Below, piece by piece: positions 18,370-63,355 of a stretch of 64,000 nt of DNA. The notes beneath the pieces are model-generated. The model did not search any database. It had not been told where the DNA came from and was given only the letters and a program-made list of their open reading frames with translations. Numbering within the stretch: position 1 is the first letter of the stretch; each line of letters begins with the position of its first letter. This stretch comes from an uncultured Planctomycetales bacterium (lineage in GTDB: Bacteria > Omnitrophota > Gorgyraeia > Gygaellales > Profunditerraquicolaceae), in assembly GCA_964542785.1 (NCBI GenBank), contig CAZIUK010000002.1:49927-113926 (forward strand), in the 5' to 3' direction. Both the position numbers and the translations under genes were made by a program.

Positions 18370-18382
18370 GCTTTATCCTTTT

Positions 18383-19505: not shown

Positions 19506-19536
19506 AAACTAATTCTCCTTAGAACTTAATTATCTC

Positions 19537-36232: not shown

Positions 36233-36370
36233 TACAAGCTTAATTTTAGGTAACTTTAAATTTAACCGGCTACTTAAGATAAAGTTTACAACATAGACAA
36301 GTAAAAACAAGGGTAATTCGGGAATACTTTGAAAAGGGTTTCTTTAGCATTCTTCTTGCTGAATATACGA

Positions 36371-44696: not shown

Positions 44697-44708
44697 CTCT
44701 CTTCCCCT

Positions 44709-45641: not shown

Positions 45642-45648
45642 AGTATCT

Positions 45649-46422
45649 CTATTTTTCCTCTAATTTTTTAACTGCAGTTAAAGCAATAGTAAGCAAATTA
45701 GCCTCTGCCATATAATAAGCAGGATTCATAAAGCCCATCTCACCGGTAATAACATTATCGCTTACCGCTAAAATTGAACCGGCCTTAATATTATAAGTTT
45801 GCGCAATCGTAAGCAAAGCCGAAGAGACCATATCTACTGCCCTTGCCCCCTCTTTGCGCTTAGCCTCAACTATATGGCGTGTTTCGCGTAATAACGCATC
45901 CGTTGTCCAAGCTACCCCGCGGTGGATATTTAAATCCATCTCTTTAGCTACATTATATAAAGTATCGGCTATTCTTTTGTCGGATAAAGTCTTAAAACTC
46001 TCTTCAACATAATAAGGAGTGACTCCGTCCCCACGGATAACTTCATCTACAACAAAAAGATCCCCTACCTTAATATCTTCATCCAAAGACCCGGCAGTAC
46101 CAATACGGATAATATTCTCTATCCGGGCATTGCACATAACCTCCGTAGTAATAGAGGTATCCGTTGAGAATCTTCCTCCGTTTATCGCCGTAACCCTAAC
46201 CCCTTGATAATTACCGGTAAACATAGAGTATTCCATAAAGGTAAAATTCTTTATCGGATTTTCTAACTTTTTTAATAGCGTCTCAAGTCTGTCTTTTGGT
46301 CCGGGGACTATCGCATATTTGCCTACATCCTGCGGCCTTAACTGCACCATATCCGTCAAATCCTTGCCTGTTAAATGCACCTCTTTTTGCATACGCATAA
46401 GCCTAATCTCCTTATTATACAA
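45649..46422 (-). CDS. PNP/UDP-family nucleoside phosphorylase (DeoD-like; candidate MTA/5'-deoxyadenosine phosphorylase)
   Basis: IVPGPKDR, IIRIGTAGSL and AVDMVSSAL...LAVSDNVITGE align with hexameric DeoD-type phosphorylases. It is adjacent to mtnA. Confidence 0.65.
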   Translation of the reverse strand: MYNKEIRLMRMQKEVHLTGKDLTDMVQLRPQDVGKYAIVPGPKDRLETLLKKLENPIKNFTFMEYSMFTGNYQGVRVTAINGGRFSTDTSITTEVMCNARIENIIRIGTAGSLDEDIKVGDLFVVDEVIRGDGVTPYYVEESFKTLSDKRIADTLYNVAKEMDLNIHRGVAWTTDALLRETRHIVEAKRKEGARAVDMVSSALLTIAQTYNIKAGSILAVSDNVITGEMGFMNPAYYMAEANLLTIALTAVKKLEEK

Positions 46423-47775: not shown

Positions 47776-48552
47776 TCACTCACCCGGATGCTCCTGTTTA
47801 AATGGTATAACCGGCGCAGTCCAGGGGGTCTGCTGATTTATTATGGATATCTCCAATGGGCAAACATTTGCCGGAACAGTTAAAGCAAACTTAAGCGCAT
47901 CTTCTATTGCCTTAGTACTCATCAACCTAGAGGTATCTACGGTTATTTCTTTTAATTTCCCGGTTAAATCAGTATCTGTTACCCCGGGCAAAAGCGAAGT
48001 TACCTTAATACCGTAATCGCGCATCTCCCAAAATAAGCCTTTAAGAAAAGCGCGCAAGCCTACCTTTAAAGAGCTATAAACAATAAAGTTTCTCGGTAAG
48101 GGGTCACAGAGCGTTGACCCTGAAACCATATTTATAATCGCTCCTGACTTGTGCTTCAACATATCATTAATCACTAAACGTATTAAACGCACATAACCTA
48201 AATAATTAGTATAGGCCAAGCGCTCGAAATCTTCTATTGGCTGCTTTGAAAATGGGTATTGACTAGAGACCCCAGCATTATTAATCAAGATATCAATTCT
48301 ACCGAATTTATCTTTAGTTTTATTAACAAGGTTTTCTAAATCCTTAAGGCTTGTTACATCACAAGGTACGGCTAAGGCCTCAATCTTGTGTTTTAAAGAA
48401 ATCTCGTCTGCAGCCTCTTTAAGGGGCCCCTCTTGGCGGGCGGCTATAGCAATGTTTATGCCTAAACTTGCGCAGGTCTCAGCAAGGGCCTTACCTATCC
48501 CCCGACTTGCCCCAGTAATAATAGCTGTCTTTCCTTTTAAATTAACTTCCAT
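47776..48552 (-). CDS. short-chain dehydrogenase/reductase (candidate ketoreductase)
   Basis: TAIITGASRGIGKALAE (TGxxxGxG), NNAG and YSSLKVGLRAF (YxxxK) are present. Confidence 0.8.
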   Translation of the reverse strand: MEVNLKGKTAIITGASRGIGKALAETCASLGINIAIAARQEGPLKEAADEISLKHKIEALAVPCDVTSLKDLENLVNKTKDKFGRIDILINNAGVSSQYPFSKQPIEDFERLAYTNYLGYVRLIRLVINDMLKHKSGAIINMVSGSTLCDPLPRNFIVYSSLKVGLRAFLKGLFWEMRDYGIKVTSLLPGVTDTDLTGKLKEITVDTSRLMSTKAIEDALKFALTVPANVCPLEISIINQQTPWTAPVIPFKQEHPGE

Positions 48553-48564
48553 GTATCCCCCTTT

Positions 48565-49689
48565 TTATAATATTTTAGGTTTTTTGAATTTATCTAAGAA
48601 TAATAAAGATAAAAGCCCTAAACCAAAAAGAATAAACCCTAAGCTAAAACTGCGCGACATAACCAGCCCTCCAAACACCATGCCTATGCCGCCTGAGATA
48701 AAACGGATTCCACTATTTAAGCTTGCTGCTTCATTTAAAAATTCATCCGGTAAATCGGTAAGCATAGTAGCTAACCCTGCGTGGTTAAAGGTCCACCCCA
48801 ACCCCCAAACGCCCATGGTTAAGATAAGCAGGGCTAAAGGGACCTTAAATATTAATAGAATGATACTGATTATCATCAGTAATAATCCTAAATCAACGGT
48901 CTTACTTCGACCTATAGAGTCTGCAAGCGCACCCCCCCACAACTCACCGAATATACCGCTTAAAGAGGTCAAGGTTATCAACATGCTAATAGTAAATTGA
49001 TTAAGCCCAAACTCAGTAGAAAAATATACTCCCAACCACTGCTGTACGGCATGATAGATAAGGCTAATTAAGAAGATGTAGGTTAGTATCCTTAAAACTA
49101 CCCTATCCTTAAAAGCCTTAAAATAATTAAATTTCAATCCTGTTATATCATCTTTAAAACTAGGAAGCTTATAATACATAACTCCCCAGAGGACAAAACC
49201 AAAGAACGCCGGGATAATAAATATCCAACGCCAATAAATTACCCCACTTAAAAAAAGCCCCAAAAGGGAGGCGATAAAAGTAGCGCTAAAAAAAATCCCG
49301 ATATACTTCCCCTTCTTTTCTCTCTCCTGATGCTTACCGATTAGTATAAGCCCAAGGGGTATTACTGAAGCGCCGAACAACCCCATAAAAAACCTCCCTA
49401 AAAAAAGAGAGTATATATTCCAAGATAGAGCTACTAATAAATTAGCAAAAGAAAAAAAGAAGATGCAGGTTAATTCTATCCTACGCGCATCAAACCTACG
49501 CACCAGGGGGCCGTAAAAAAATGCCGCTACTCCGTAGGTAAGCATATAAACCCAGATAATCCTACCGACTAAAAACTGAGAAAGAGCAAACTCGCCCGCT
49601 ATAGAAGGTATGAGCGCTGCGGAGGCTGCGACATTAAAGGAGAGGAGCGCTCCTTCAAGACAGAAGATAAAAAAGGTTGATTTCTTCAA
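48565..49689 (-). CDS. MFS transporter
   Basis: It has 12 predicted TM helices. A GRxxDRxGRR-like loop (RRFDARRIE) follows TM2, and the size is about 370 aa. Confidence 0.7.
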   Translation of the reverse strand: MKKSTFFIFCLEGALLSFNVAASAALIPSIAGEFALSQFLVGRIIWVYMLTYGVAAFFYGPLVRRFDARRIELTCIFFFSFANLLVALSWNIYSLFLGRFFMGLFGASVIPLGLILIGKHQEREKKGKYIGIFFSATFIASLLGLFLSGVIYWRWIFIIPAFFGFVLWGVMYYKLPSFKDDITGLKFNYFKAFKDRVVLRILTYIFLISLIYHAVQQWLGVYFSTEFGLNQFTISMLITLTSLSGIFGELWGGALADSIGRSKTVDLGLLLMIISIILLIFKVPLALLILTMGVWGLGWTFNHAGLATMLTDLPDEFLNEAASLNSGIRFISGGIGMVFGGLVMSRSFSLGFILFGLGLLSLLFLDKFKKPKIL

Positions 49690-50126
49690 GAATTAGCTTC
49701 CTTTTCAATAACTCTTTTAAAAATCTGCAAATTCTCCTTGGAATGCTTATTTATAAACCCCTCTACCTCTTCATCGCTAAACTTTGCTTTGCTATCCATC
49801 TCAAAATGCTGTATCCAGGTAAGCTCTACCCCTTCGGGCCTTAAAGTATAAAGCCAGATAATCTTCATATACTTAAAAGGGAACTTAGGCTCCAGTCTCT
49901 CGGCATAAGCTAAGTGATTATCTTTAAGCAAAAGCCTCCAAGAGACCCAGGTCTTATCCTCATCGTCAGTTAAACGGAAGGTAATCTTATCCCCTTCCTT
50001 GCTTATTATCTCTGCTTTTTTATATTCCGTGCCAAACAACTCTGTCCAACGGAGAATATCATTGGATATATCAAAAACTTTTTCATAAGGCGCATTTATG
50101 ATAATAGAATTGCAAGTATGTCCCAT
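49686..50126 (-). CDS. SRPBCC (Bet v1-like) protein, polyketide cyclase/aromatase-like
   Basis: At 146 aa with the pattern INAPYEKVFDISNDILRWTELF...W..W, it is the size and type of the TcmN/ZhuI-family ARO/CYC enzymes. The call is tentative. Confidence 0.45.
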   Translation of the reverse strand: MGHTCNSIIINAPYEKVFDISNDILRWTELFGTEYKKAEIISKEGDKITFRLTDDEDKTWVSWRLLLKDNHLAYAERLEPKFPFKYMKIIWLYTLRPEGVELTWIQHFEMDSKAKFSDEEVEGFINKHSKENLQIFKRVIEKEANS

Positions 50127-50158
50127 AAGGCTCTCCTTTCTAAATTTTATTTAAAATA

Positions 50159-50959
50159 TTAAATTATCGCAACTACCCTAGACCAGGCAGCCCCGGTTTT
50201 ACGTATCCTTACCGGAAAACAGATAATTTTAAAATTAGTCGCCAACGGTAAAGCTCCTAAGTTGCTTAACCTCTCTATATGAATAAACTCTCTTTTTCTA
50301 CCGTAAAAATGCGCTGGGTAAAATTTATCCGGGTCTTTAGATTCCAAAAATTCCTTTAACATAAACCTATAAGGCCTATCTATGCCCATAGTATCCACGC
50401 CAAAAACCTTAATCCCGTTATCAATAAGAAAGTCTATCGCTGAGGTATCAATCCCGGGATAATCGGTAAAATATTTAGGGCTACCATAAAACCTATCTGC
50501 CCCTGTCCAGATAAGGACAATATCCAAGGGTTTTAAAGTATAACTAATCTTACCTAATGCTTCTTCTAAATCTCCTTTAGTTATCACCTCTGCCGGCTTC
50601 TTATGACGCAAATCTAAGCGTAAGGCATCCCAATAGCAATATTCAAGGGGTATCTCATCGGCTGTTTTAGAAGGCCTGCCTTCGGATTTAGTCCCATAAT
50701 GAAAGGAGTAATCTAAATGCGTCCCCACGTGTACCGGAGAGTGGACTATCTCTAAAGAGAGAAACTCTCCATCAGGAACATCCGAAGTTTTAAGTATTCT
50801 TTTGCCTAAAAGATAGCGAATCTTCCCCTTTAAAGTCTTCCCCATAATTACGCGGTTAAACTTTTTTACCCCCGCCTTATGGGTTATACGTTCAATATCC
50901 ACCTTGTGCACTTCAAAGGCGGTCTCATCAATGGGAAGACTTAAGTCAATTATCTTCAT
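50159..50959 (-). CDS. cyclase-family protein (PF04199 'putative cyclase'/kynurenine-formamidase fold)
   Basis: HSPVHVGTHLDYSFHYG is the HxGTHxDxxxH metal motif of this family. Confidence 0.65.
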   Translation of the reverse strand: MKIIDLSLPIDETAFEVHKVDIERITHKAGVKKFNRVIMGKTLKGKIRYLLGKRILKTSDVPDGEFLSLEIVHSPVHVGTHLDYSFHYGTKSEGRPSKTADEIPLEYCYWDALRLDLRHKKPAEVITKGDLEEALGKISYTLKPLDIVLIWTGADRFYGSPKYFTDYPGIDTSAIDFLIDNGIKVFGVDTMGIDRPYRFMLKEFLESKDPDKFYPAHFYGRKREFIHIERLSNLGALPLATNFKIICFPVRIRKTGAAWSRVVAII

Positions 50960-50962
50960 TAC

Positions 50963-51196
50963 TTAGGATTGTTTAGAGAGTATAACCTTCTCAATATCAT
51001 CAATAGTGGAAAACTTAGTAATCTCTTTTGGAGATAGTTTGATACCAAAGGCCTTCTCCAAGGAAATTATTGACTCTACCATCTCAGTTGAATCAACTCC
51101 AACTGAGTCTTGCAAAGATAAGCCATCTTTGAGCTCTTCGGGTTTTACCTTTAAGAGGTTAATCAAAACTTCTCTAATTTTAGTTTTTGTATCCAT
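50963..51196 (-). CDS. acyl carrier protein
   Basis: The 77-aa protein has SVGVDSTEMVE (phosphopantetheine-attachment DS motif, here DST in place of the canonical DSL) and an acidic helix-II. Confidence 0.7.
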   Translation of the reverse strand: MDTKTKIREVLINLLKVKPEELKDGLSLQDSVGVDSTEMVESIISLEKAFGIKLSPKEITKFSTIDDIEKVILSKQS

Positions 51197-51231: not shown

Positions 51232-52698
51232 TTATATCTGTATTTCTCCCTTAGTAGCCGCAGCCTCCCACTTATTAATCCCATCCATAACATCCTTAAA
51301 ACAAAGCTTTGCTAAAGGGTCAAAATTACTCTCCATAATGCGGTTTATGCGCCCGGGTTTAGAGAAGAACTCACGCATACACCAAGCACCTAGGCGCCCT
51401 AGGTCTTCTATAGTTAAGTGGTCTGTAGGAATAACCGGATGCAAGAAGTCCCAAGTAGAAAAGTCAACCTTTCTAGGGTCAACCCAACCTTTCTTTAAGG
51501 CGATCCTCCACATCGGAGAATTAGGAGCCGGAGTAACGTAACCAACCCACATTATATCCGGGTCAACGCTATCGGTAAATTCAAAACGCTGTTTTATAAT
51601 CTCTTCAGTATCATAATCAAAACCCATCATGATATCGGCGACAATAGCAATATCATTTTTACGCAAAATATCTATGGTCTTTTGAATCTGCTCTAAGGTT
51701 ATCCCTTTTGCAATCTTTTTTAACTCTGACTGAGTTGTTACCTCAATCCCAAAAACTCCCATAAACAAACCGTTCTCTTTCATAATCGGGACTATTGATT
51801 CGCAATTAACCCAATCAATCGCTCTACCCAAAGAGACCCATTTAATCGGATTGCCTGATGCTTTTTTTAATTCGCAGAACTTTTTAACCCGCTCAGGGTC
51901 GACATTAAAATTATCATCCTGTATAACTACGACTTTTACCCCGTATTTCTTATGCAACAACTCTAATTCCTCCATCACTCTCTCTGGAGATTTGGCCCGC
52001 CACTTAAGGAAATCCGACGGTGAACGCGGATCAAATTGATCCCACTCATAACAAAACGTGCACGCCGAAGGACAGCCCCGGGAAGTCACCATATCCACAA
52101 AAGGCTTCCAATAAGTATGCCCGACATATTTATCCATAGGAAATAAATCATAGGCGGGTAAGGGCAATTTGTCTAAATCCTCCATCAAAGGCTTATGCGG
52201 GCCCATAACAATATTGCCATCAACGCGCGAGGTAACCCCGGCTACATCTTTTAAAGGTTTATTCTTATCAATCGCCTCAATTAAATCCCCAAATGACTCT
52301 TCCTCTGCCATAACTACAAAGTCAACCTCGGGGTTATCTTCTAAAGTAGGCACAGGCATCGCTGAATACCATAAACCTCCTAATATTATCTTTGTTTTCG
52401 GTAAAACCTTTTTAATCCCTACAGCCGCATCTTTAAAGTGGCGTAAAACGCCATATCCACCATAACCATGCAACTGCTCCCCCATAACAACAATATCCGG
52501 GTTTTTTTGCTTTACAATCTCAATAAGCTGCTCCATAGGAATCTGCTCAGCCTTGCCGTCTAAGACCTCAACATCCGAATACCCGCGCGTCTCTCTTATA
52601 TATGCTGCCCAATGCGCATAAAGTTGATTTGGCGACCTATGAATACCGTGCGTTGCCCACGCGCCTACCTTGGGCATAACAAATAGTATCTTCATCAC
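51232..52698 (-). CDS. B12-binding (class B) radical SAM enzyme
   Basis: An N-terminal Rossmann-like cobalamin-binding domain is followed by TSRGCPSACTFC (CxxxCxxC). The length is 488 aa. Confidence 0.8.
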   Translation of the reverse strand: MMKILFVMPKVGAWATHGIHRSPNQLYAHWAAYIRETRGYSDVEVLDGKAEQIPMEQLIEIVKQKNPDIVVMGEQLHGYGGYGVLRHFKDAAVGIKKVLPKTKIILGGLWYSAMPVPTLEDNPEVDFVVMAEEESFGDLIEAIDKNKPLKDVAGVTSRVDGNIVMGPHKPLMEDLDKLPLPAYDLFPMDKYVGHTYWKPFVDMVTSRGCPSACTFCYEWDQFDPRSPSDFLKWRAKSPERVMEELELLHKKYGVKVVVIQDDNFNVDPERVKKFCELKKASGNPIKWVSLGRAIDWVNCESIVPIMKENGLFMGVFGIEVTTQSELKKIAKGITLEQIQKTIDILRKNDIAIVADIMMGFDYDTEEIIKQRFEFTDSVDPDIMWVGYVTPAPNSPMWRIALKKGWVDPRKVDFSTWDFLHPVIPTDHLTIEDLGRLGAWCMREFFSKPGRINRIMESNFDPLAKLCFKDVMDGINKWEAAATKGEIQI

Positions 52699-52743: not shown

Positions 52744-53976
52744 CTAATTAAACTTTTCTACTACTAATACTGCGTTAATTCCGCCTCTGCCGCGCGAGAT
52801 TACTAAAGCCCTATTAATCTTATATTCTTTAGCCTCTCTACTAATATAATTAAGTCCATTTAAAGCAGGTGAATCTAAATTAACTGTTGGCGGAACTAAA
52901 CCATTCTCCATCGCTAAGGTAGTAGCGATTAAATCAACTACGCCGGAGGCGCCTAACAAATTACCGAACATTGATTTAGGACAACTAACCGGAATATCTT
53001 TGGCCCTCTCTCCAAAAACATCCTTTATTGCCTCCACCTCAGAATTATCCCATAAATCAACTGCCAAGCCATCTAAGCTAATATAATCTATGTCTGAAGG
53101 GACTACTTTAGCATCTAAGAGTGCCTCCTTTATCGCCCGGGCAAGCTCTTTCCCGTCGCTTGCGCAATTTATCCGGTCAACTCCGTCACAAGTAGTCGCA
53201 TACCCTGAAATCAAAGCGAATATATTGGCTTTGCGGGATTTTGCCCTCTTTATACTCTCCATAACCACAACCCCTGAGCCTTCACCTATAACGCAACCAC
53301 TACGGCTCTTATTAAAAGGCCTGTAGGCTTGCTGGGGCTTTGAATTATCTTTGGAGAGCGCGCCATAAGTATTACAACATAAAAGCGCATAAGGAGTAAC
53401 CGGCGCTTCCATCCCCCCGGCAAGGATAAAATTCAATTTATTCTTTAATAATACTTTTTTAGCATAACCTAAGGCCATCAAAGAGCTAGCGCGATCGGCA
53501 ACGACTGTCTTTGAGAACCCCTTAATCCCATAGTAAATTGACACCTGTCCTTGCGGAGCCGCTGGAAACCACGCAGACGCCATATAAGGAGAGACCCCCT
53601 CTCTTCCTTCAATATACATATCCCTAAGCTCAGTCTCGGCGTAAAGCCACCCTCCAATAGCATTGCCTAAAAATATGCCTACTAAATTCGGATCTTCGCT
53701 TTTAATATCAATACCGGAATCTTGCAAGCTCATCTCTGCAGCAACTAAGGCCATGTGTGAAAAGACATCGATTTTCTTTAAGAGCCGCTCTGAGATATGA
53801 CTATATTTTTCTAAATCGTCAATCTGCCCGGCAATACGCGAAGGGTATTTAGAGGCGTCAAATCGAGTAATCTCTTTTATAAAAGACCTACCGCTTTTTA
53901 TATTCGCCCAAAACTGCCTCTTACCTATCCCAGAAGGAGTTACAACCCCTAAACCTGTTATTGCAATCTTATCCAC
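52744..53976 (-). CDS. ketosynthase-like chain-length-factor (KS-beta/CLF-type) protein lacking the Cys-His-His triad
   Basis: The fold is full-length KAS I/II, but the active-site position reads VVADRASS (Arg where FabF has ATACTSG Cys). The first His is absent (LDGLAVD) and the second is replaced (KSMFGNLLG, His to Asn). It has a GTG start with an AAGGAGA Shine-Dalgarno and overlaps the KS gene by 8 nt. Confidence 0.7.
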   Translation of the reverse strand: MDKIAITGLGVVTPSGIGKRQFWANIKSGRSFIKEITRFDASKYPSRIAGQIDDLEKYSHISERLLKKIDVFSHMALVAAEMSLQDSGIDIKSEDPNLVGIFLGNAIGGWLYAETELRDMYIEGREGVSPYMASAWFPAAPQGQVSIYYGIKGFSKTVVADRASSLMALGYAKKVLLKNKLNFILAGGMEAPVTPYALLCCNTYGALSKDNSKPQQAYRPFNKSRSGCVIGEGSGVVVMESIKRAKSRKANIFALISGYATTCDGVDRINCASDGKELARAIKEALLDAKVVPSDIDYISLDGLAVDLWDNSEVEAIKDVFGERAKDIPVSCPKSMFGNLLGASGVVDLIATTLAMENGLVPPTVNLDSPALNGLNYISREAKEYKINRALVISRGRGGINAVLVVEKFN

Positions 53977-55231
53977 TATATCTCCTTAATATCAATGAAG
54001 AGTGTATCCCGGAAAAACCACTACTAGTTTTTAAAATAGTATTTACTTTTTTTTCTATCGCTTGATTCGGTATATAATACAAATCACACTGCGGGTCCTT
54101 CTCCTCCTGATTGATTGTAGGAGGCAAAAGGTTTTTTTCAAAAATCATTGAGGCAATAGTCATCTCAATTGCGTTTGCCGCTGCCAAAGGATGCCCAATC
54201 ATAGACTTAAAAGAACTAATGGGTAAGCTATAAGCATACTCTCCGAAAATCTCCTTATAAGCGCTTGTCTCAAATATATCATTCATCCGGGTTGATGAGC
54301 CATGCGCGTTTATATAATCAATCTCTTTTGACTTAATCCCTGCGTCTTTAAGGGCTAAAGATATACAAGTCTCCATCGCCTGCCCATCGGAAGGAAGGTC
54401 GGTCATATGAAAGGCATTGCAGCTTGTACCAAATCCTAAAACCTCGCAATATATAGGCGCGTTACGCTTTAAGGCATGGCCTAATTCTTCTAATATCAAA
54501 ATACCTGCTCCTTCTGAGAGAACAAATCCGTCACGCTTATTATCAAACGGACGAGATGCCTTTTGCGGATCATCATTATGCACGGATAAAACATTTACTA
54601 CGTCAAAAGCACCAAAGGTTATCGGTGTAATCGGCGCCTCCGCTGCGCCACAAATCATAATATCACACTCTCCATCTTGAATAGACTCTAAACCAAACCC
54701 CAAAGAGTCTGTCCCAGCAGTACATCCTGTTGAAAGGGTGCTACAACTTCCTCTTAACTTATATTTAGAGGATAACTCTATAGAAGGAGTATTAAACATC
54801 GCAGCGTCATAAAGATCAGGACGTACCTTTGAAGGATCTATGGGATTCTTCCCATCATCTGTAACAAGCGCAAACTCCTCCTCCATATACTTTGTCCCGC
54901 AGATAGCATTAGCCAAACAAACCCCAATACGCCTAGGGTCTTCTTTATTAAAATCCAAACCGCTATCCTTTACTGCCATATCTGCAGCAACTACCCCGAA
55001 TTGCACATACCTATCCATGCGCATAGCCTCTTTATGAGTTAAACCCAATTTAAAAGGGTCAAAATCACGTACCTCTGCGGCAATCTTGGTATTAAATATA
55101 GAGACGTCAAACCCATCAACGCGCTCTACCCCAGACTTACCTGATACAAACCCCTCCCAAGCAGATTTCTTCCCTATGCCGTTAGGAGATATAACCCCTA
55201 TGCCTGTAATAACTACTCTGCGTTTATTCAT
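53969..55231 (-). CDS. beta-ketoacyl-ACP synthase (active KS-alpha/FabF-like)
   Basis: STGCTAGTDS (active Cys), NAHGSST and KSMIGHPLAAA (both His) are present. The start is moved to the ATG at 55231 (MNKRRVVITGIGVIS); the track start is TTG and overlaps the upstream gene. Confidence 0.8.
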   Translation of the reverse strand: MNKRRVVITGIGVISPNGIGKKSAWEGFVSGKSGVERVDGFDVSIFNTKIAAEVRDFDPFKLGLTHKEAMRMDRYVQFGVVAADMAVKDSGLDFNKEDPRRIGVCLANAICGTKYMEEEFALVTDDGKNPIDPSKVRPDLYDAAMFNTPSIELSSKYKLRGSCSTLSTGCTAGTDSLGFGLESIQDGECDIMICGAAEAPITPITFGAFDVVNVLSVHNDDPQKASRPFDNKRDGFVLSEGAGILILEELGHALKRNAPIYCEVLGFGTSCNAFHMTDLPSDGQAMETCISLALKDAGIKSKEIDYINAHGSSTRMNDIFETSAYKEIFGEYAYSLPISSFKSMIGHPLAAANAIEMTIASMIFEKNLLPPTINQEEKDPQCDLYYIPNQAIEKKVNTILKTSSGFSGIHSSLILRRYSG

Positions 55232-55235
55232 AAGA

Positions 55236-55835
55236 TTATCTTTTCTCCTCGTCAATCCTCGTTACCTTAAAGACTATATTCCCTCCATCAGGACAAGTGA
55301 CTGTATCTATTGAATTAGGGTCTTGCATGAAGAAAAATTTTGCCCCGAAGTTTAATGCAAAGAGCGCCGGAAAAGCGCAATGAAAAGCAGCCCCGCAAAA
55401 ATTTGGGATAGTCTTTAACCCTTGCGTCTCCCACCTATCCCCTACTTTATACCCATAAGAACATTTGCCCTTAGCCTTAACTACTTCAATAATCATCTTT
55501 TTAGGGTTTGGGCCCTTATGCCTTAAGTCCTTAGCGACAAACTCTACATTCCCCTGCTTGTCAAGTATCTCTGCTTGAAACTCCAACTTACCTCCGTCAG
55601 GGCAGGTAACCAAAAGTGACCTCTGGTTTTCTCTAAACCCGAATTTTGCCCCAAAACTTAAAGCATAGATAACCGGGAATAAAGCATGCGCTAAACCTAA
55701 ACAAAAATGCTTTGGAGGATGGGTAAAATCTTCTAAGATAATCTCATCCCCCTTTTTATAGCCATGGTAGCATTCGCCAAATACATTAGTTACGGTTAAC
55801 TTTAATTTAGGAAAGGGCGTCTTAACTTCTCTCAT
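55236..55835 (-). CDS. tandem-duplicated Cys/His-rich domain protein (two TIGR04076-like ~95-aa repeats), probable metal-binding, function unknown
   Basis: Repeat 1 is GECYHGYKKGDEI...HFCLGLAHALFPVIYALSFGAKFGF...VTCPDGGKLEF. Repeat 2 is GKCSYGYKVGDRW...NFCGAAFHCAFPALFALNFGAKFFF...VTCPDGGNIVF. Confidence 0.4.
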   Translation of the reverse strand: MREVKTPFPKLKLTVTNVFGECYHGYKKGDEIILEDFTHPPKHFCLGLAHALFPVIYALSFGAKFGFRENQRSLLVTCPDGGKLEFQAEILDKQGNVEFVAKDLRHKGPNPKKMIIEVVKAKGKCSYGYKVGDRWETQGLKTIPNFCGAAFHCAFPALFALNFGAKFFFMQDPNSIDTVTCPDGGNIVFKVTRIDEEKR

Positions 55836-55836
55836 T

Positions 55837-56844
55837 TTAATTTAAATACTCCTTTACGTTTTCTAAAAACTCGTCCTTATTTAAAAACCTTCTACTCGTC
55901 TCAACCTGATGAACCATACTGACTAATCTACTATTAAGCCCAGCGGATAAATTACTCTCTTTGGCTAAAGAGACAAACTCTCCGTTTATGAAATCTACCT
56001 CTGAAAGCCTATTGCGCTTTATACTCTGCAGGATAGACCCGTATAAAGCCTCTTTACTTAACTTTATCATCATCCCTGAATATATCCTTGCTGCCTCTTC
56101 TAAGGGGATAGAGATAAGTTTAGTTATATTCTCTAAAGGAAACCCCGGAAGAGAAGTAAGCCTGATACCTGATTTTGATATAATATCAAAACCTTCCCGC
56201 AAAATGTTAATACTTACCCTGCTTACCATTATATCAGAAAAAGCCTCCTGCATACTTATCCCCAGTATAGCAGGGATACAATTATTGGCATTTACAAAAA
56301 TCTTTAAGTATTTCATCCCTATTATATCTTCGCTTATAACGACAGGAAAGGCCTTATCTAAAGCTTTACTTAACGCAACTATTTTTTCATCTATACTACT
56401 ATTTGAAAGCTTACCTAAAATCCAACTCCCTTCAAAATTATGCACCACCTCTGCGGGCTTAAGATAAGTAGAACCAAACATAACAATGCTTGGAATAATA
56501 TTCTCTACAGGAAGATATTTAGATACAATCTTTTCCGCCTGAACTCCGTTTTGAGTAGTAATGATAATAGCGTTTTTAAACAACTCTAAATTACTCTCTA
56601 AGGCTCCCTGAATATCCTGCGTCTTAGTCGCTAAGACTACCACCTCTGCAAAAAAATCTACCTTCTCCTCTATAGGAATATCTACCTTAAAATTACCCCT
56701 TACCCCGGATATACTTATCCCTTTTTTGCGTATAGCAGTAATTGAATCACCCCGGCCGATTAATAATACATCTTCCCCTTTTAACTTAAGATACCCTGCG
56801 ACCAAAGCGCCGATTGCACCTGAACCAATGACTGTTATTCTCAT
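55837..56844 (-). CDS. 2-dehydropantoate 2-reductase (ApbA/PanE) family NAD(P)H oxidoreductase
   Basis: ITVIGSGAIG (Rossmann), VVLATKTQD and the C-terminal SILQSIKRNRLSEVDFINGEFV block are the PanE signature. Confidence 0.65.
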   Translation of the reverse strand: MRITVIGSGAIGALVAGYLKLKGEDVLLIGRGDSITAIRKKGISISGVRGNFKVDIPIEEKVDFFAEVVVLATKTQDIQGALESNLELFKNAIIITTQNGVQAEKIVSKYLPVENIIPSIVMFGSTYLKPAEVVHNFEGSWILGKLSNSSIDEKIVALSKALDKAFPVVISEDIIGMKYLKIFVNANNCIPAILGISMQEAFSDIMVSRVSINILREGFDIISKSGIRLTSLPGFPLENITKLISIPLEEAARIYSGMMIKLSKEALYGSILQSIKRNRLSEVDFINGEFVSLAKESNLSAGLNSRLVSMVHQVETSRRFLNKDEFLENVKEYLN

Positions 56845-56847
56845 GAT

Positions 56848-57108
56848 TTAAGACTTAGGGAAGCCGTATTTCTTATAATCAAACCCGGTTTGCTCTAGGA
56901 GCCTTACCATTAAGCTATAAAATGGTGAAGGGACCCCGGAGAAAAAAGCAGATACTACATCCTGCTCCTCCACGTAAACAGACTCTCTCTTCCTTGCGCT
57001 CTCTTCAGCTGTCCTAACTACTACCTCTTCGGTAATACGACGGTGAAATAAGGGCATTTTTGAGATAAATAACTGAAACTTCTTCTTTGTGTTTTGGTCC
57101 CAATTCAT
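56848..57108 (-). CDS. small PCP_red-like (ChlB C-terminal-domain-like) protein, tentative
   Basis: MPLFHRRITEEVVVRTAEESARKRESVYVEEQDVVSAFF resembles the P-F-F-V-R...E..AR.RG...I..E.....A.F pattern of the protochlorophyllide-reductase 57-kDa C-terminal domain. The ribosome-binding site is weak. Confidence 0.3.
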   Translation of the reverse strand: MNWDQNTKKKFQLFISKMPLFHRRITEEVVVRTAEESARKRESVYVEEQDVVSAFFSGVPSPFYSLMVRLLEQTGFDYKKYGFPKS

Positions 57109-57305: not shown

Positions 57306-57596
57306 TTAAGCTACCTCTTCTAGAGGCAAGACAAAGGCCTTTATCCCTTCATGACTACTCTTACCCTTTAATTCCTTTATCTTAACAAGCATCTCTTTTA
57401 ATTGGCTATCCTGACAGGCTATATAAAGAATATTATTTAGCCCCGGCCAAATATCCGTTCCAAGATGCGTTCCGCTTGTCTCTCCGCAGCCAAAGACTCC
57501 AGAGGTCTTAGTGTAACCTTTTACCTTTGCTTCATCTAGTATCTCCATTACTTCGTCATCCAAAACTTCATTATATACGACCATCAGCATTTTCAT
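57306..57596 (-). CDS. PII-like (GlnB-fold) small protein coupled to the RND pump
   Basis: It is 96 aa. The predicted beta-alpha-beta-beta-alpha-beta pattern and the GxxG loop (GVFGCGETSG) resemble PII-like proteins. It overlaps the RND stop by 4 nt. Confidence 0.4.
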   Translation of the reverse strand: MKMLMVVYNEVLDDEVMEILDEAKVKGYTKTSGVFGCGETSGTHLGTDIWPGLNNILYIACQDSQLKEMLVKIKELKGKSSHEGIKAFVLPLEEVA

Positions 57597-60500
57597 GATA
57601 CCCCCTCTTTTCTAAACGCCTTTTTACGGTGAAATACCGCATAAAGAGTAGGGACTAGAAGCATAGTAACAAAGGTAGATACCGAAAGCCCGCTTATCAT
57701 AGTAATCCCTAAAGGCTGCCAAGTCTCAGAGCCTGAGCCGCGCGATAAGGCCAAAGGCAGAAGCCCTACTAACGTAGTTATCGTCGTCATAAGCACAGGC
57801 CTTAACCTATCCTTTCCTGCGGAAGTTACTGCCTCATACATAGAAAAACCTCGGGCGCGCAATATATTTATATAACTTATCAAGACAATCGCATTATTCA
57901 CAACTATACCCATAAGCATGACTATGCCTAAAAAGGTATTAATACTTAAATATGTCCGAGTAAGAACAAACCCGAGTATTACCCCTACAAAGGTAAATGG
58001 TATAGAAAACATTACAATAAAAGGGTCAAGCAAAGACTCAAACTGCCCAGCCATAACCATATAGACTAAGACTATGCCTAATATAAGTAGCAGGGTTAAA
58101 TCCTTAAACGCCTTCTGCTGCTCCTCTACCTCCCCGCCAAAACTAACAATAATATCAGGAGGAATTACGATTTTACTTAATTCTTTTTTTAAATCCTCTA
58201 CAATCTTGCCCGGAGAACGCATATAAGTATTACATTCAACGCTTACTACTCTCTCTCTATTTTGACGCTCTATTGTCTCAGGCCCGCTTGTTTCATAAAT
58301 CTTTGCTACGTTACTTAATCTAACTAACTTTCTAAGGTTGTTTTTTACATTATAAGTAGCTGCCTCCACCCGGGCAAAAGGGACATTCTCTTCAGGCAAA
58401 GGAGGTATAATAAAAAGGTTGTCTAAATCTTCTAATTTTGAGCGTGAGGATTCTTCAAGCCTTACATATATATCATAGGTCTTGCCTTTCTCTCTATACT
58501 TTGTAGCAGTTGCTCCCTGGATATAGGCCTTTAATGTCTCTGAAACTGTATGCATATCAAGCCCAAGGCTAGATGCCTTCTCCCTATCCACATCAATCCT
58601 TAATTCCGGACGATTTGCCTCACGGGATACGCTTACATCAACTGCCCCGGGAATCTTCTCTAAAATTAACCTTATTTTTTCAGCTAAGGCATCCGTCTCT
58701 TCAAAAGAGTACCCTACAATATCTAATTGCACCCTTTTCCCCCCGGTACCGGCAATCATCTTACCTAAAGGGCTTCCTGTGGTTATGTCCGTCTTTAGAA
58801 CTCCAGGAATAACCTTAATTTTTTCCCTGACTATCTGGCCAATCTCTTTAGAAGAGCGCTTCCTCTCTTCCTTTGGTATCAACCTAGCGCCCGCAGAGAT
58901 AATATGTGTCCCGGAAGCTCCTCCCATAAGCCTTCCTACTCCGGTCATTGTCCCACTTCTAGAATAATAAAATTTTGCTTCTGGGATATCTACTTCTAAT
59001 ATCTCCTCTATCCTCCGAGCTACCTTATCCGTCTCCTCAACCCTAGTCCCTATGGGTAAATACACCGTAAGCCTAATATCCCCGGAATCTTCCTCAGGGA
59101 CAAACTCACTTCCTACCAAGGGCAAAAGCATCAAACTAAAAATAAACGCTCCGATAAATCCTATAAGAATAAGTTTTTTATGGTTTAAGCAAAAACCTAA
59201 AGTCTTGCCGTATAAGTTCTCCCAGTTAACAAACCATTTTTCAGAGACCTGATATAATTTAGACAAAAAACCGGCTTTTCTTTCTTTAATACGCAAGAAT
59301 TTTGAACAGAGCATAGGAGTAAAAGTAAGGGAGGTAAATAAAGAGGCAATTAAAGTTACTGAGACTACCATCGCCAAAACCCCAAACATAATCCCTATTA
59401 CCCCAGGGATAAAGAGCATCGGTAGGAAGACTACTAATGTAGTTAAAGTAGAGGCACCTATCGCTAGAAAAAGCTCTGAGGTCCCAAATATCGCTGCTTC
59501 AGATGGACGATTACCGCGTTCAATCTTACGATAAACATTATCTACAACTACAATAGCATTATCTACAATCATCCCAGTAGCAATAGCCAAGGATGATAAA
59601 CTTATAACATTAATCGTCCCCTTACTTAAAAATAGGTATATAAATGCGGCTAAAAGAGAAAAGGGAAGTGTCAATGCAATTATCAAGCTTGGGGTAAACG
59701 CCCTTAAGAAAAACCAGACGACCAAAATAACTAATACTATGCCTACCCAAACCGAAGATTTAAGAGAATCAAGCGATTCAATAATATTCTGTGAGGTATC
59801 AAATATAATATTTAATTTTACATCGGCAGGGAGAACTTTTTCTACTTCCTTAAGCTTATCTTTAACGCGCCCGGCTACCTCAACTGTATTGGTCCCGGTT
59901 TGCTTTTGAACCATAAGCATAATCCCGCGTTTTTTATTAATACGAACGTATCCTGTCTCTTCCTTAAAGCTATCTTCAACCCTTGCCACATCTTTTAAAT
60001 AAATTAGCCTATTGTTGCGCTTACCGAGAATTAATAAATTAATCTCTTCAGGCTTGGCAAATTCACCGGGGAGTCTAATAAGATAATCTGTTAACCCGGT
60101 CTTTAAATTCCCCACCGGCTGGGTTATGTTTTCATACTTTAGCTTGTTTTTAATATCAAGTATAGAGAAACCATAACTCTCTAAGCGTTGTCTATCTATC
60201 CAGATATTTATCTGCCGCTCCAACCCTCCTCCTTGAATCTGCACTGTCCCTACACCAGGAATCTGCTTTAATACGTCGCCTATTCTCTTATCTACGATAT
60301 CATAAAGGTCAGGGTAACTCTGGTCGGCAGTTACTCCGATATAAATAATGGGGATATTGGCAGTATTAAACTTAAATATCATCGGGTTATCCATCTCTTC
60401 GGGAATATCCGGTAAAAATCTCTTTGCCCTATCTATCCTATCGCGGATATCATTTGAAGCCTCATCAAGATTTGTCCCCCAAATAAACTTTAATCTTATA

Positions 60501-60769
60501 ATAGATGTCCCTTCAGAAGAAGTGGAGGTTATCTTTTCTAATCCCGGGGTTGTCCCGAGTTGATTCTCTAACTCCTCTGTTACCTTTATCTCTACATCCG
60601 CGGGACTTGCCCCAGGATAGCTAGAAACTACACTTATAGAGGGAGGCTCAATTTCAGGCATCATATCAACGCCCAAACGACTTAAAGAATAAACGGCAAG
60701 AATAACCATCGCTAGAAAAATCATTAAGTTCGTAATCGGCTTTTTAACTCCGAATTGCGGCAAACTCAT
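57593..60769 (-). CDS. RND-family efflux transporter permease (AcrB/CzcA superfamily)
   Basis: It is 1058 aa with 12 TM segments and two large periplasmic loops. The AcrB-type N-terminus (KPITNLMIFLAMVILAVYSL) and conserved TM4 acidic/TM10 regions are present. Confidence 0.85.
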   Translation of the reverse strand: MSLPQFGVKKPITNLMIFLAMVILAVYSLSRLGVDMMPEIEPPSISVVSSYPGASPADVEIKVTEELENQLGTTPGLEKITSTSSEGTSIIRLKFIWGTNLDEASNDIRDRIDRAKRFLPDIPEEMDNPMIFKFNTANIPIIYIGVTADQSYPDLYDIVDKRIGDVLKQIPGVGTVQIQGGGLERQINIWIDRQRLESYGFSILDIKNKLKYENITQPVGNLKTGLTDYLIRLPGEFAKPEEINLLILGKRNNRLIYLKDVARVEDSFKEETGYVRINKKRGIMLMVQKQTGTNTVEVAGRVKDKLKEVEKVLPADVKLNIIFDTSQNIIESLDSLKSSVWVGIVLVILVVWFFLRAFTPSLIIALTLPFSLLAAFIYLFLSKGTINVISLSSLAIATGMIVDNAIVVVDNVYRKIERGNRPSEAAIFGTSELFLAIGASTLTTLVVFLPMLFIPGVIGIMFGVLAMVVSVTLIASLFTSLTFTPMLCSKFLRIKERKAGFLSKLYQVSEKWFVNWENLYGKTLGFCLNHKKLILIGFIGAFIFSLMLLPLVGSEFVPEEDSGDIRLTVYLPIGTRVEETDKVARRIEEILEVDIPEAKFYYSRSGTMTGVGRLMGGASGTHIISAGARLIPKEERKRSSKEIGQIVREKIKVIPGVLKTDITTGSPLGKMIAGTGGKRVQLDIVGYSFEETDALAEKIRLILEKIPGAVDVSVSREANRPELRIDVDREKASSLGLDMHTVSETLKAYIQGATATKYREKGKTYDIYVRLEESSRSKLEDLDNLFIIPPLPEENVPFARVEAATYNVKNNLRKLVRLSNVAKIYETSGPETIERQNRERVVSVECNTYMRSPGKIVEDLKKELSKIVIPPDIIVSFGGEVEEQQKAFKDLTLLLILGIVLVYMVMAGQFESLLDPFIVMFSIPFTFVGVILGFVLTRTYLSINTFLGIVMLMGIVVNNAIVLISYINILRARGFSMYEAVTSAGKDRLRPVLMTTITTLVGLLPLALSRGSGSETWQPLGITMISGLSVSTFVTMLLVPTLYAVFHRKKAFRKEGVS

Positions 60770-61644
60770 AACTCTTCTACCTCAACTTCTACTAAAGCTC
60801 CCTCAAAGAGCTTCTGCTGCCCCATAATAACAACTATATCCCCCTTACTAACTCCGCTGTTTACTTCATAATAAAATCCATCCTTTATCCCTAAAGATAC
60901 CTGCCTAAGCTTGGCTTTATTACCCTCAACTACAAAAAGATAAGAGTTAGAATCCCTACCCATTATCGCCTCTTTAATTACCGCCGGAACAGACTGCCTT
61001 TTATCTAAAATAATACTTGCCCGGGCAAACATTCCTGACCTTAATTTTCTATCAGAGTTATCCGCGGTTATCTCTATGGGAGAAGAACGCGTCGCTAAAT
61101 TTATCACTGGGCTAATTTTAGACACTACCCCTAAAAATTCTTCATCCGGCCAAGCATCCACCCTAAAGCGCGCCTCTTGGCCTAAAAACAATTTAGGCAA
61201 ATATTTCTCCGGTATATCTAAAATAATTTTTACCCTACTGTCATTTACTACAAAGGCTACTGGGGTCTGCGCAGTTACATTCTCCCCTATATCTACAAGA
61301 AACCTCCCCACTACCCCATTTAGGGTACTTTCAACAGGAGCCTTCTTAAAATTAAGGCCTACCTCATCCCGGTCTATATAACATAGGTAATCTCCCTTGT
61401 TAACTATACTCCCATCTTCTTTAAGTTTCTCTATAATTTTACCACTTACCTTTGGATAAATATAAGCTTCATCTTCAGCTTTTATATCTCCTGCATATTC
61501 TAATATATAATTTAAATCTTTAAGCTCCACCTTCATAACCTTTACCGGGATAGTATCCTGCTCCTGGCTATTCTTTACCTTTGTCTGACATCCGGAAACA
61601 ATAAATAACGATAAAAATAATACTAAAGAAATTATACGCGCCAT
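60766..61644 (-). CDS. RND periplasmic adaptor (membrane fusion protein), lipoprotein
   Basis: The lipobox IVSGC is followed by a biotinyl-lipoyl-like hairpin (KVSGKIIEKL...YLCYID) and beta-barrel/MP domains. It overlaps the RND start by 4 nt. Confidence 0.75.
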   Translation of the reverse strand: MARIISLVLFLSLFIVSGCQTKVKNSQEQDTIPVKVMKVELKDLNYILEYAGDIKAEDEAYIYPKVSGKIIEKLKEDGSIVNKGDYLCYIDRDEVGLNFKKAPVESTLNGVVGRFLVDIGENVTAQTPVAFVVNDSRVKIILDIPEKYLPKLFLGQEARFRVDAWPDEEFLGVVSKISPVINLATRSSPIEITADNSDRKLRSGMFARASIILDKRQSVPAVIKEAIMGRDSNSYLFVVEGNKAKLRQVSLGIKDGFYYEVNSGVSKGDIVVIMGQQKLFEGALVEVEVEEL

Positions 61645-62924
61645 TACAATCCTCCTGTTGCCTTATCAAATTTCGCTTTAGCTAATATATAGTCGTAAGA
61701 GGCCTGCTTGTAATTAAACATAGCCACAGCATACTTAACCTCCGCGTCGCTCTTATCAAGCAGGCTTAACTGACCTTTATCATATTTTTCAGTAGATACC
61801 TTTAGGTTATCTGTGTACACCTTAATCTCTGTTTGGTTAGATTTAATCTTGGCTATTGCATCTTTAAGGCCAAGATAAGCGTCTTTAAGCTCTAAGATAA
61901 TATCTTTTATAACTTTATCTTTTAATAGCTGTGTTTTTTTCAATTCAAATACCGCCCCTTCTACCTTAGCCTTTGCCTTCCAGCCGTCAAATACCGGCCA
62001 AGAAACATTAACTCCGATAACATTATGATCATTCCAACCTCGGGTATTAGCTAAAGCCGTAGCTGTATGCGAACGGCTATAGTAATCCCATGAGGCATAA
62101 ATATCAGGCCTACCAGATGCCTTGGCTATCTCGATTGCGCTCTTGTCTGCCTGCAACTGGGCAGCATACTGCTTAATCTCAGGCCTTTCTTCAAGCGCCT
62201 TTAGTAAGCCTAAATCTAAGGCAACCTCGGCTTCTTCATAGCCTATATCCCCCAAAGCCGATATGTCAACATCTTGCTCTAAATATAAAAGATTGATCAA
62301 CGATTCTTTGGCTGAAATTACCTGATTTAAGGAAGATACATATACCTCCTCTAAATTACTCAAAGAAGATTGAGCTTGTAATACCGCTGATTCAGAAATC
62401 TCACCGAATTTTTGCCTCTCAAGTTGATATTGAAAATGCTCCTGCCCGTTTTCTAACAATAGTTTATTAAGATTTACAAATTCTTGTGCAAGGATTAAAG
62501 TATAAAAAGTATCCTTTATTTTTAAAGCGGTCTCTATCTTCTCTTTGTCTAATAAGGCCTTGGCAATTTCAAAATTATAGCCGTTAAATTTTATGGTATT
62601 GAATATTCTCCCGCCCGCATAAAGATACTGCCTTAAACTAACCTGAGTATTGGATTGGCTTAAATCTTTGGAATAATAATTTCTCGTGCGCGCCCAGCCT
62701 CCAGATAAAGTAAAAAGAGGAAAAAGGTCTGTATGGCTTTCAGCAATCTTTACCTTAGCTCTCTTTACATCCTCCTCTTTTAACAGTATGCCCCTATTAT
62801 CCCTCAAGCCCACAAGCATAGCCTCTTCCAAAGTAAAAGAAACGCCTTCTGCTAAAGCAAAAAAATAAGGCCAAATAATAAATAAAAAAGCCACTCCCCC
62901 TAATCTTAAATATCCCCTGAACAT
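61644..62924 (-). CDS. TolC-family outer-membrane efflux channel
   Basis: A signal peptide is followed by two-fold internal repeat architecture with long coiled-coil segments; the length is 426 aa. Confidence 0.7.
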   Translation of the reverse strand: MFRGYLRLGGVAFLFIIWPYFFALAEGVSFTLEEAMLVGLRDNRGILLKEEDVKRAKVKIAESHTDLFPLFTLSGGWARTRNYYSKDLSQSNTQVSLRQYLYAGGRIFNTIKFNGYNFEIAKALLDKEKIETALKIKDTFYTLILAQEFVNLNKLLLENGQEHFQYQLERQKFGEISESAVLQAQSSLSNLEEVYVSSLNQVISAKESLINLLYLEQDVDISALGDIGYEEAEVALDLGLLKALEERPEIKQYAAQLQADKSAIEIAKASGRPDIYASWDYYSRSHTATALANTRGWNDHNVIGVNVSWPVFDGWKAKAKVEGAVFELKKTQLLKDKVIKDIILELKDAYLGLKDAIAKIKSNQTEIKVYTDNLKVSTEKYDKGQLSLLDKSDAEVKYAVAMFNYKQASYDYILAKAKFDKATGGL

Positions 62925-63355
62925 AATATATCTCTTATATGCGTAAGAATCCTAAGATAATTCTCCCTATCACTTTTAGAAATTCGCTGAAATATCTTTA
63001 TCGTTAAATTACGTTTTTCTTCTTTTATTCTTCTTAATAAAGAAGAACCCTTAGGAGTAATCAATATTTTTATAATACGCCTGTCTTGTTTATCATAGTC
63101 CCTCAAGACATACCCAGATTTAACCAGCCTATCTACTATGCCCGTAGCAGCAGGCGTAGTTATCTTCATAAAAGTAGCGATATCTTTCATTTTAATTTTA
63201 TCTTTGGAACTTAGAAAATCAAGGATTAAAATCTGGGGGAGAGTTATCTTTCCTTTATAAATCTCATCCGGCTGTAGCCGCGAAAACTCCCTTATAAGCA
63301 TCGGCATAACTTGATTAAGCTTATCGGCAAAATCCGATAAAGAACTAAAAGGCAT
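62906..63355 (-). CDS. MarR-family transcriptional regulator
   Basis: It has a winged helix with TLPQILILDFL...MKDIATFMKITTPAATGIVDRLVKSGYVLRDYDKQDRRI. It is the first gene of the efflux operon. Confidence 0.75.
   Translation of the reverse strand: MPFSSLSDFADKLNQVMPMLIREFSRLQPDEIYKGKITLPQILILDFLSSKDKIKMKDIATFMKITTPAATGIVDRLVKSGYVLRDYDKQDRRIIKILITPKGSSLLRRIKEEKRNLTIKIFQRISKSDRENYLRILTHIRDILCSGDI

Follow-up and report, generated by a model that had tools for sequence, protein, structure and literature searches.

A two-domain TIGR04076 protein in a conserved Omnitrophota ketosynthase operon, a candidate partner of a B12-binding radical SAM enzyme

What might a small cysteine-rich protein do at the head of a ketosynthase pair? 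The question is raised by a 64,000-nucleotide stretch of Omnitrophota DNA (contig CAZIUK010000002.1 of assembly GCA_964542785.1, positions 49,927 to 113,926; hereafter the window), in which a 199-aa open reading frame (ORF) on the minus strand runs from ATG to stop and spans exactly 55236-55835. Its product, which we call T4076x2, carries two domains of the TIGR04076 family and is encoded in one operon with two ketosynthase (KS) homologues and a B12-binding radical S-adenosylmethionine enzyme (B12-rSAM). Literature searches for TIGR04076 turned up two papers, which offer annotation-level remarks and guesses and describe neither a function nor a cofactor. We tentatively favor the view that T4076x2 is a pseudo-dimer with a Cys-ligated metal, most simply an iron-sulfur (Fe-S) cluster, that would supply electrons to the B12-rSAM or, with lower probability, handle its cofactor; the metal, the redox role and the partner are all three things that we infer, and we would put the whole at somewhat less than an even chance.

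Two domains, each with three invariant cysteines

The NCBIfam model TIGR04076 matches T4076x2 in two stretches (E 9.4e-30, 103 bits, curated cut-off 33 bits); the whole protein scores three times that cut-off, and both halves cover the model end to end, domain 2 aligning to profile positions 2-91 of 91. Comparison of the halves by BLASTP (residues 1-105 versus 106-199) gives 36 identities over 92 positions (39%, E 4e-20), a similarity far beyond chance, and four motif blocks are visible in both: CxxGYKxGD, FCxxxxH, FPxxxALxFGAKF and VTCPDGG. A previous reading of this DNA, made from the sequence only, had proposed a tandemly duplicated TIGR04076-like domain with a motif pattern common to both repeats, and had named dissimilar halves or a known enzyme family as outcomes that would speak against it; the duplication and the shared pattern are borne out, the halves are clearly similar, and TIGR04076 is not a known enzyme family. 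With a custom family hidden Markov model (HMM), domain 1 (aa 5-94; 55554..55823, minus strand) scores 75 bits and is the more divergent copy, bearing a lineage-specific FTHPPKHFC segment that follows the Omnitrophota pattern FTH[PA]P[KE][HF]FC. Domain 2 (aa 109-197; 55245..55511, minus strand) scores 108 bits and is nearer to stand-alone members of the family, and the single-domain relatives found with phmmer mostly align to residues 110-197. A six-frame scan with the custom HMM found no second TIGR04076 copy elsewhere in the window. T4076x2 matched no family in Pfam-A at E up to 1 and no PLSDB plasmid by tblastn, and PDB searches with its sequence and with a 49-sequence profile returned chance matches only (uL22m, FosB, ASH2).

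Across 175 domains drawn from representatives at 50% identity, no side chain is invariant except those of three cysteines (100%, 99% and 99%); strong conservation is otherwise seen at a glycine (91%), a helix proline (91%) and the proline after the third cysteine (90%). When 21 two-domain proteins are aligned, the seven invariant positions are again six cysteines and one proline. In domain 1 the triad comprises Cys22 (codon 55770..55772, all on the minus strand), just past strand 1, in the column that is 100% Cys; Cys45 (55701..55703), at the helix N-cap; and Cys78 (55602..55604), part of the CPD motif where strand 3 ends, the latter two in columns that are 99% Cys. Sequence and alignment place the domain 2 triad at Cys125 (55461..55463), Cys147 (55395..55397; the helix N-cap, also by the model) and Cys181 (55293..55295; CPD motif). 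The spacing is 22-23 and then 33-34 residues, and both domains show the family signature of about 90 aa with a Cys after strand 1, one before the helix and one in a C-P-[DN] turn. A metal or cofactor site, as previously proposed for this protein, is plausible because these three cysteines are invariant throughout the 175 domains.

AlphaFold2 models were obtained for T4076x2 with 42 orthologues (predicted local distance difference test, pLDDT, 80; predicted template modelling score, pTM, 0.74) and for domain 2 alone with 54 single-domain relatives (pLDDT 87). Each domain is predicted to fold as strand-strand-helix-strand-strand, with strands at residues 10-19, 31-34, 73-77 and 83-91 and the helix at 46-60 in the modelled domain 1. 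In the models the first triad cysteine lies two residues past strand 1, the second caps the N terminus of the helix, and the third closes strand 3. A Foldseek search of the PDB gave nothing below E 0.1, and by these predictions the TIGR04076 fold is without a solved close relative.

A small family of modules, duplicated and fused repeatedly

TIGR04076 is a small family: phmmer, run exhaustively over 1.84 billion cluster representatives, gave no more than 281 clusters with an E of 1e-3 or below. Domain counts cover the 150 clusters listed among these 281, of which 149 were scanned with the custom HMM: 106 clusters have one domain, 23 have two, five have three and eight have four, the remaining eight being fragments. 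Two to four tandem copies are thus present in about a quarter of the listed 50%-identity clusters, and the Integrated Microbial Genomes (IMG) resource names the identical protein already in public databases (P0001) "uncharacterized repeat protein (TIGR04076 family)"; for both reasons tandem copies are ordinary in this family, and the earlier impression that a fused duplicate is unusual does not hold. In one protein (P0204) the two copies are 82% identical. In the Omnitrophota proteins they are 30-39% identical, and each copy groups with the copy at the same position of other proteins. As judged from these sequence relationships, the tandem duplication has arisen more than once, and such repeated independent duplication suggests that the unit works as a dimer.

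Some members are joined to redox domains. P0211 consists of a PF01613 (Flavin_Reduct) domain followed by one TIGR04076 domain, and P0184 has three TIGR04076 domains, after which come DUF362 and then a 2x[4Fe-4S] ferredoxin domain. Flavin reductase and rubredoxin are joined in Hrb of Moorella thermoacetica (Silaghi-Dumitrescu et al. 2003, pmid 12627946). The rubredoxin of Hrb reportedly comes after the flavin-reductase domain; the TIGR04076 domain of P0211 stands in the position of that rubredoxin, whereas T4076x2 has no flavin domain. With three invariant cysteines and no CxxC pairs, a single TIGR04076 domain is unable to build a rubredoxin-type Fe(Cys)4 site. Two further candidates for unusual architectures were set aside. 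P0125 (449 aa), which joins an ApbA-like reductase to the first domain, was taken as a truncated or miscalled read-through of adjacent genes, and P0169 (1018 aa), with seven short matches, carries unrelated viral and eukaryotic Pfam domains (Flu_NS1, AMPK1_CBM) and seems artificial or chimeric.

Stand-alone TIGR04076 genes of Chloroflexota and other phyla lie in unrelated neighborhoods, and two seem monocistronic. One is 37 nt downstream of a gene for a Fer4+CCG oxidoreductase, and another adjoins a DUF362 gene. We sampled one large single-domain subfamily (CPDxxNPVVF) at 80 metagenome loci (460 kb); clustering of its neighbors revealed no recurrent one, the most frequent being an unannotated cluster at 7 of 46 loci, with the target gene itself missed by the ORF caller at 34 of the 80. 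Searching the same 80 loci by tblastn for B12-rSAM, KS, sm86 (a small protein of the window operon, described below), ApbA, DUF362, flavin reductase and Fer4-CCG returned one DUF362 gene only, and on this ground we reject a family-wide partnership of TIGR04076 with B12-rSAM or KS proteins. As the stand-alone members have no recurrent neighbor, the family fits the picture of a general-purpose carrier, a small module that is now and again joined to redox domains, and not that of a pathway enzyme.

This bears on one alternative, in which T4076x2 would be a small enzyme acting on an intermediate attached to acyl carrier protein (ACP), as a Zn(Cys)3-water hydrolase or cyclase or through a Cys nucleophile. 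The protein is highly conserved and is encoded within a biosynthetic operon, and three protein ligands plus a water are the pattern of a catalytic zinc site. Against this, the domain occurs in one to four tandem copies and stands alone in unrelated contexts, no conserved acid or base residue exists beyond the Cys triad and the structural Gly and Pro, and at 90 aa, without obvious pocket-forming insertions, it looks like a module. We consider this enzyme role very unlikely.

A collinear operon, its rearrangements and a possible partner

The two-domain form is found almost only in Omnitrophota, where at least 283 GTDB species genomes encode a relative; the identical protein and more than 840 relatives (79-100% identity) come from metagenome-assembled genomes (MAGs) of Candidatus Omnitrophota. 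All 85 examined loci show one collinear operon, the downstream order being judged in the loci that are long enough. It begins with PadR, an optional insert (MarR, OEP, MFP, RND and P-II), sm86, an ApbA-like reductase, T4076x2, KS and a second KS resembling a chain-length factor (CLF), and continues with B12-rSAM, ACP, a PF04199 cyclase, SRPBCC, an optional MFS transporter, a short-chain dehydrogenase/reductase (SDR), a 130-aa protein, Amidohydro_2 and PNP. To compare rates of change we took the mean identity to the window proteins over 39 complete loci. B12-rSAM leads at 88.5%, followed by KS (84.1%), T4076x2 (83.6%), SDR (81.9%), CLF (79.9%), ACP (73.6%), sm86 (65.8%) and ApbA (59.9%); T4076x2 is thus conserved as strongly as the catalytic core, in a set of loci (80) that was picked by similarity to T4076x2 and is thereby biased upward for this protein. 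In its fixed position and high conservation, the operon is closer in appearance to a core pathway, for a lipid or a cofactor, than to one for a variable secondary metabolite.

A profile search also found distant two-domain orthologues (46-58% identity), all of them from Omnitrophota where a taxon is named, and many without a taxon name, which reveal further arrangements of the locus. In L087 (P0122) the same cluster is present with B12-rSAM relocated after SDR, seven genes of one operon then separating it from T4076x2, compared with two in loci of the window type. The relocated enzyme (16649-18376) carries a C-terminal domain that is 44% identical to sm86 (E 5e-20), and directly after this fusion lies a gene for an aldehyde:ferredoxin oxidoreductase (AFOR_N/AFOR_C; 18366-20255), a hint of a link between the pathway and ferredoxin-type redox chemistry. 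In L088 (P0124) a phosphopantetheinyl transferase (PPTase) is followed by sm86, T4076x2, KS, CLF and ACP, and then by the contig end. Two arrangements are without KS and have B12-rSAM of a different lineage: in L097 (P0280) a B12-rSAM only 24% identical to that of the window is encoded divergently upstream, and a methyltransferase and a 95-aa sm86 homologue (12356-12643) are encoded downstream, and in L178-L181 (P0275) another B12-rSAM gene, divergently oriented, is found 1.8 kb upstream, its product sharing 31% identity with that of L097 and 23% with that of the window. Altogether, B12-rSAM is close to the two-domain gene in four arrangement types (window, L087, L097 and L178), and sm86 accompanies T4076x2 in four of six, including without KS. 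The partners that persist in the absence of KS are therefore B12-rSAM enzymes and sm86, the latter probably a B12-rSAM accessory domain.

The same gene orders are relevant to a second alternative, in which T4076x2 would be an accessory subunit of the KS/CLF heterodimer, docking as a pseudo-dimer, with a structural or gating role or with its cysteines forming a thiol relay for a starter or intermediate acyl group. In the three KS-containing arrangement types T4076x2 is always directly 5′ of KS, the two genes either lying 4 nt apart or overlapping by 4 nt, and KS in turn overlaps CLF; when B12-rSAM relocates in L087, T4076x2 remains with KS. Its conservation equals that of KS and CLF, and a two-domain pseudo-dimer would suit a heterodimeric partner. 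The persistence of T4076x2 beside B12-rSAM genes at loci without KS points the other way, and we regard the subunit role as possible, if rather unlikely.

We return to the reading that we favor, service to the B12-rSAM. According to it, the two strand-strand-helix-strand-strand modules would form a small pseudo-dimeric protein, and the Cys triads would bind a metal, in the simplest case as an Fe-S cluster. Each domain could have a cluster of its own, whose fourth site is open or taken by a ligand other than Cys, or a single cluster could bridge the two domains. The Omnitrophota T4076x2 would then be a dedicated accessory of the B12-rSAM encoded in the same operon, most likely as a low-potential electron donor to its [4Fe-4S] cluster, to cob(II)alamin or to both, and less likely in handling or delivering its cofactor. 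It would in this way support a pathway resembling a type II polyketide synthase (PKS) or fatty acid synthase (FAS), with KS/CLF, ACP, cyclases and a ketoreductase (KR), and leading to a metabolite conserved across a large Omnitrophota clade. A metal-based redox role is favored because the three cysteines are the sole invariant side chains, and because relatives are fused to redox modules (P0211, P0184) or adjoin Fer4+CCG and DUF362 genes. The partnership with B12-rSAM is favored because the enzyme is encoded near the two-domain gene in four arrangement types, and because T4076x2 travels with sm86, which is fused to the enzyme in L087. Conservation at the level of the catalytic core supports the same reading. 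The sequence-only reading had suggested a redox partner or a scaffold for B12-rSAM or KS; the redox fusions and the recurrent B12-rSAM neighbors are compatible with this suggestion, as circumstantial evidence.

Several observations weigh against this reading. The domains contain no CxxC motif, each having three invariant cysteines, and no fourth ligand is conserved: the Asp of the CPD motif is present in 71% of the 175 domains, and the His positions that had earlier been included in a conserved Cys/His spacing are His in just 42-45%, so that of this proposed spacing the Cys part stands and the His part does not. The search for features of a ferredoxin or rubredoxin (CxxC-type motifs, four Cys ligands, a Fer4 or rubredoxin match) found none, with zero Pfam families matched. 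The fold that comes nearest to the model, that of the N-terminal domain of XdhC, is not an Fe-S fold; FKBP-like folds come next. Outside Omnitrophota, the 80 single-domain loci show zero association with B12-rSAM, and in L086 (P0121) neither KS nor B12-rSAM nor any other of the listed partners lies within 10 kb of the two-domain gene. Gene order binds T4076x2 more tightly to KS than to B12-rSAM, as the L087 relocation illustrates, and some adjacency to B12-rSAM is expected by chance, since genes for such enzymes are fairly common in these genomes. Lastly, the upward bias in the identity of T4076x2 tempers the argument from conservation.

A tentative fold match favors a third alternative, in which T4076x2 would act as a cofactor chaperone or thiol relay, as XdhC does or as persulfide carriers such as TusA do, its Cys triad binding cobalamin, an Fe-S cluster or sulfur and passing it to the radical SAM enzyme or the product. 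XdhC is a cofactor chaperone: it keeps the molybdenum cofactor (Moco) bound while this is sulfurated, and it places it in xanthine dehydrogenase (PMC10609526). The N-terminal domain of XdhC/CoxI proteins (PDB 2we7, 3on5), the nearest predicted fold, is a lead rather than a sign of membership. No XdhC_CoxI match to T4076x2 appeared in Pfam at E up to 1, and the PDB sequence and profile searches retrieved no XdhC chain; of the XdhC/CoxI architecture (PF02625 and PF13478), T4076x2 lacks the C-terminal Rossmann-like XdhC_C domain, and the operon has no molybdoenzyme. Taken with its evidence on both sides, the chaperone role seems to us unlikely.

The operon in the window, related systems and significance

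In the window, the conserved block opens on the minus strand with sm86 (56848..57108), an 86-aa helical protein resembling DUF2621 and PCP_red. Its own match to DUF2621 is weak (E 0.003); its homologues match DUF2621 at E 6e-8 and, more weakly, PCP_red at E 8e-5, PCP_red being the helical domain at the C terminus of subunit B of protochlorophyllide reductase. The next gene (55837..56844, minus strand) encodes a homologue of ApbA/PanE-family NAD(P)H-dependent 2-oxoacid reductases (PF02558 and PF08546; TIGR00745 at 161 bits, cut-off 141) and ends 1 nt before T4076x2. The TAA stop of T4076x2 (55236-55238) is separated by a 4-nt spacer from the KS ATG at 55231, in agreement with the earlier placement of the gene directly upstream of the KS pair in a B12-rSAM operon. 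This KS start is the one used by homologues (420 aa); the ORF listing uses a TTG at 55255, which would make KS overlap T4076x2 by 20 nt. KS-alpha (53969..55231, minus strand) is a FabF-like ketosynthase with both Pfam ketoacyl-synt domains, N and C, and an intact Cys/His/His triad, scoring 460 bits against the FabF model and hence under its equivalog cut-off of 494. The CLF-like paralogue (52744..53976, minus strand), whose 5′ end shares 8 nt with the 3′ end of KS-alpha, is 31% identical to KS-alpha and has lost the catalytic triad, with Arg, Asp and Asp aligned to the Cys, His and His.

Further along the minus strand are the B12-rSAM (51232..52698; PF02310 and PF04055), a BchE/HpnJ-like enzyme, the ACP (50963..51196; PF00550) and, in the same collinear block (47776..50959), the PF04199 cyclase, an SRPBCC protein (Polyketide_cyc2), an MFS transporter and an SDR resembling a ketoreductase. 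The B12-rSAM falls outside every curated equivalog, all of its NCBIfam matches being under cut-off (e.g., TIGR04072, rSAM_ladder_B12, at 63.9 versus 360). Downstream (42214-46422, minus strand) are a PNP_UDP_1 phosphorylase, an IF-2B-family isomerase (MtnA-like), a class II aldolase and an aldehyde dehydrogenase, a set that we take to resemble the dihydroxyacetone phosphate (DHAP) shunt for 5′-deoxyadenosine and methylthioadenosine (MTA), which disposes of a radical SAM by-product; a PNP gene is also beside the cluster in L087. An AMP-binding acyl-CoA/ACP ligase, possibly the enzyme that activates the starter unit, is encoded near the cluster both in the window (37407-38918, minus strand) and in L087 (5907-7403). 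Between PadR and sm86 the window carries a MarR/OEP/MFP/RND/P-II efflux module (57306-63355, minus strand), present in about a quarter of the related loci; since the remaining loci lack it, we regard it as an insertion or deletion polymorphism beside the operon. A 1507-aa protein (31787-36310, minus strand) has internal repeats of about 35 aa (LLEDKLKDxDxxVRQTAIKSLAxLYAKLIEKGE), HEAT-like by eye, and is reminiscent of giant repeat proteins that have been described in Omnitrophota (bioRxiv 10.64898/2026.06.07.730766).

Cluster I of the anammox bacteria Kuenenia and Brocadia, a putative ladderane cluster, encodes an active KS, a triad-less paralogue, an ACP and a B12-rSAM (bioRxiv 10.64898/2026.05.19.726425). 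The window operon, like this cluster and like a minimal type II PKS (KS, CLF and ACP), has an active FabF-like KS, a dead paralogue comparable to amxFabFmut of the anammox cluster (bioRxiv 10.64898/2026.05.19.726425) and an ACP, and it likewise has a B12-rSAM, but one that fails the TIGR04072 ladderane model at the score given above. The description of cluster I includes FabZ and a homologue of phytoene desaturase, and lists no TIGR04076 gene; Pfam and NCBIfam scans found neither amxFabZ dehydratase nor phytoene-desaturase homologue among the genes of the window operon, which instead has the PF04199 cyclase, SRPBCC, SDR, ApbA-like reductase and sm86. In Omnitrophota, antiSMASH "ladderane" clusters were reported in MAGs (PMC9902471) and KS/CLF pairs were noted (PMC10132072), and the window operon may be of the kind reported as antiSMASH "ladderane" biosynthetic gene clusters. 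The TIGR04076 gene goes unmentioned in both descriptions (PMC10132072, PMC9902471). T4076x2 is a bona fide member of its family, with which it shares the Cys triad and the tendency to tandem copies, and differs from it in the diverged first domain and in the fixed place in a KS/B12-rSAM operon, which other members lack. What is new here is the conserved association with the operon; neither the TIGR04076 domain nor its occurrence in tandem is.

Reconstituting B12-dependent radical SAM enzymes is difficult, in part because little is known of the reductants and cofactor-loading partners that serve them in the cell, and T4076x2 and sm86, the latter sometimes fused to the enzyme, would be concrete candidates for such partners. 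The operon, with its KS, CLF-like protein, ACP, B12-rSAM, cyclases and KR, may itself matter, being collinear in every examined locus and belonging to a phylum in which T4076x2 relatives are so widespread. In its broadest form, which we offer as a speculation and rate as rather improbable, the idea is that TIGR04076 would be an unrecognized class of Cys3-ligated dimers or pseudo-dimers, with Fe-S or another metal, in redox chemistry or cofactor handling, and that the fused Omnitrophota form together with sm86 would be a dedicated activation system of B12-dependent radical SAM enzymes, including that of a phylum-wide KS/CLF pathway to an apparently core metabolite or lipid. If true, this would give the uncharacterized TIGR04076 family its first functional handle.
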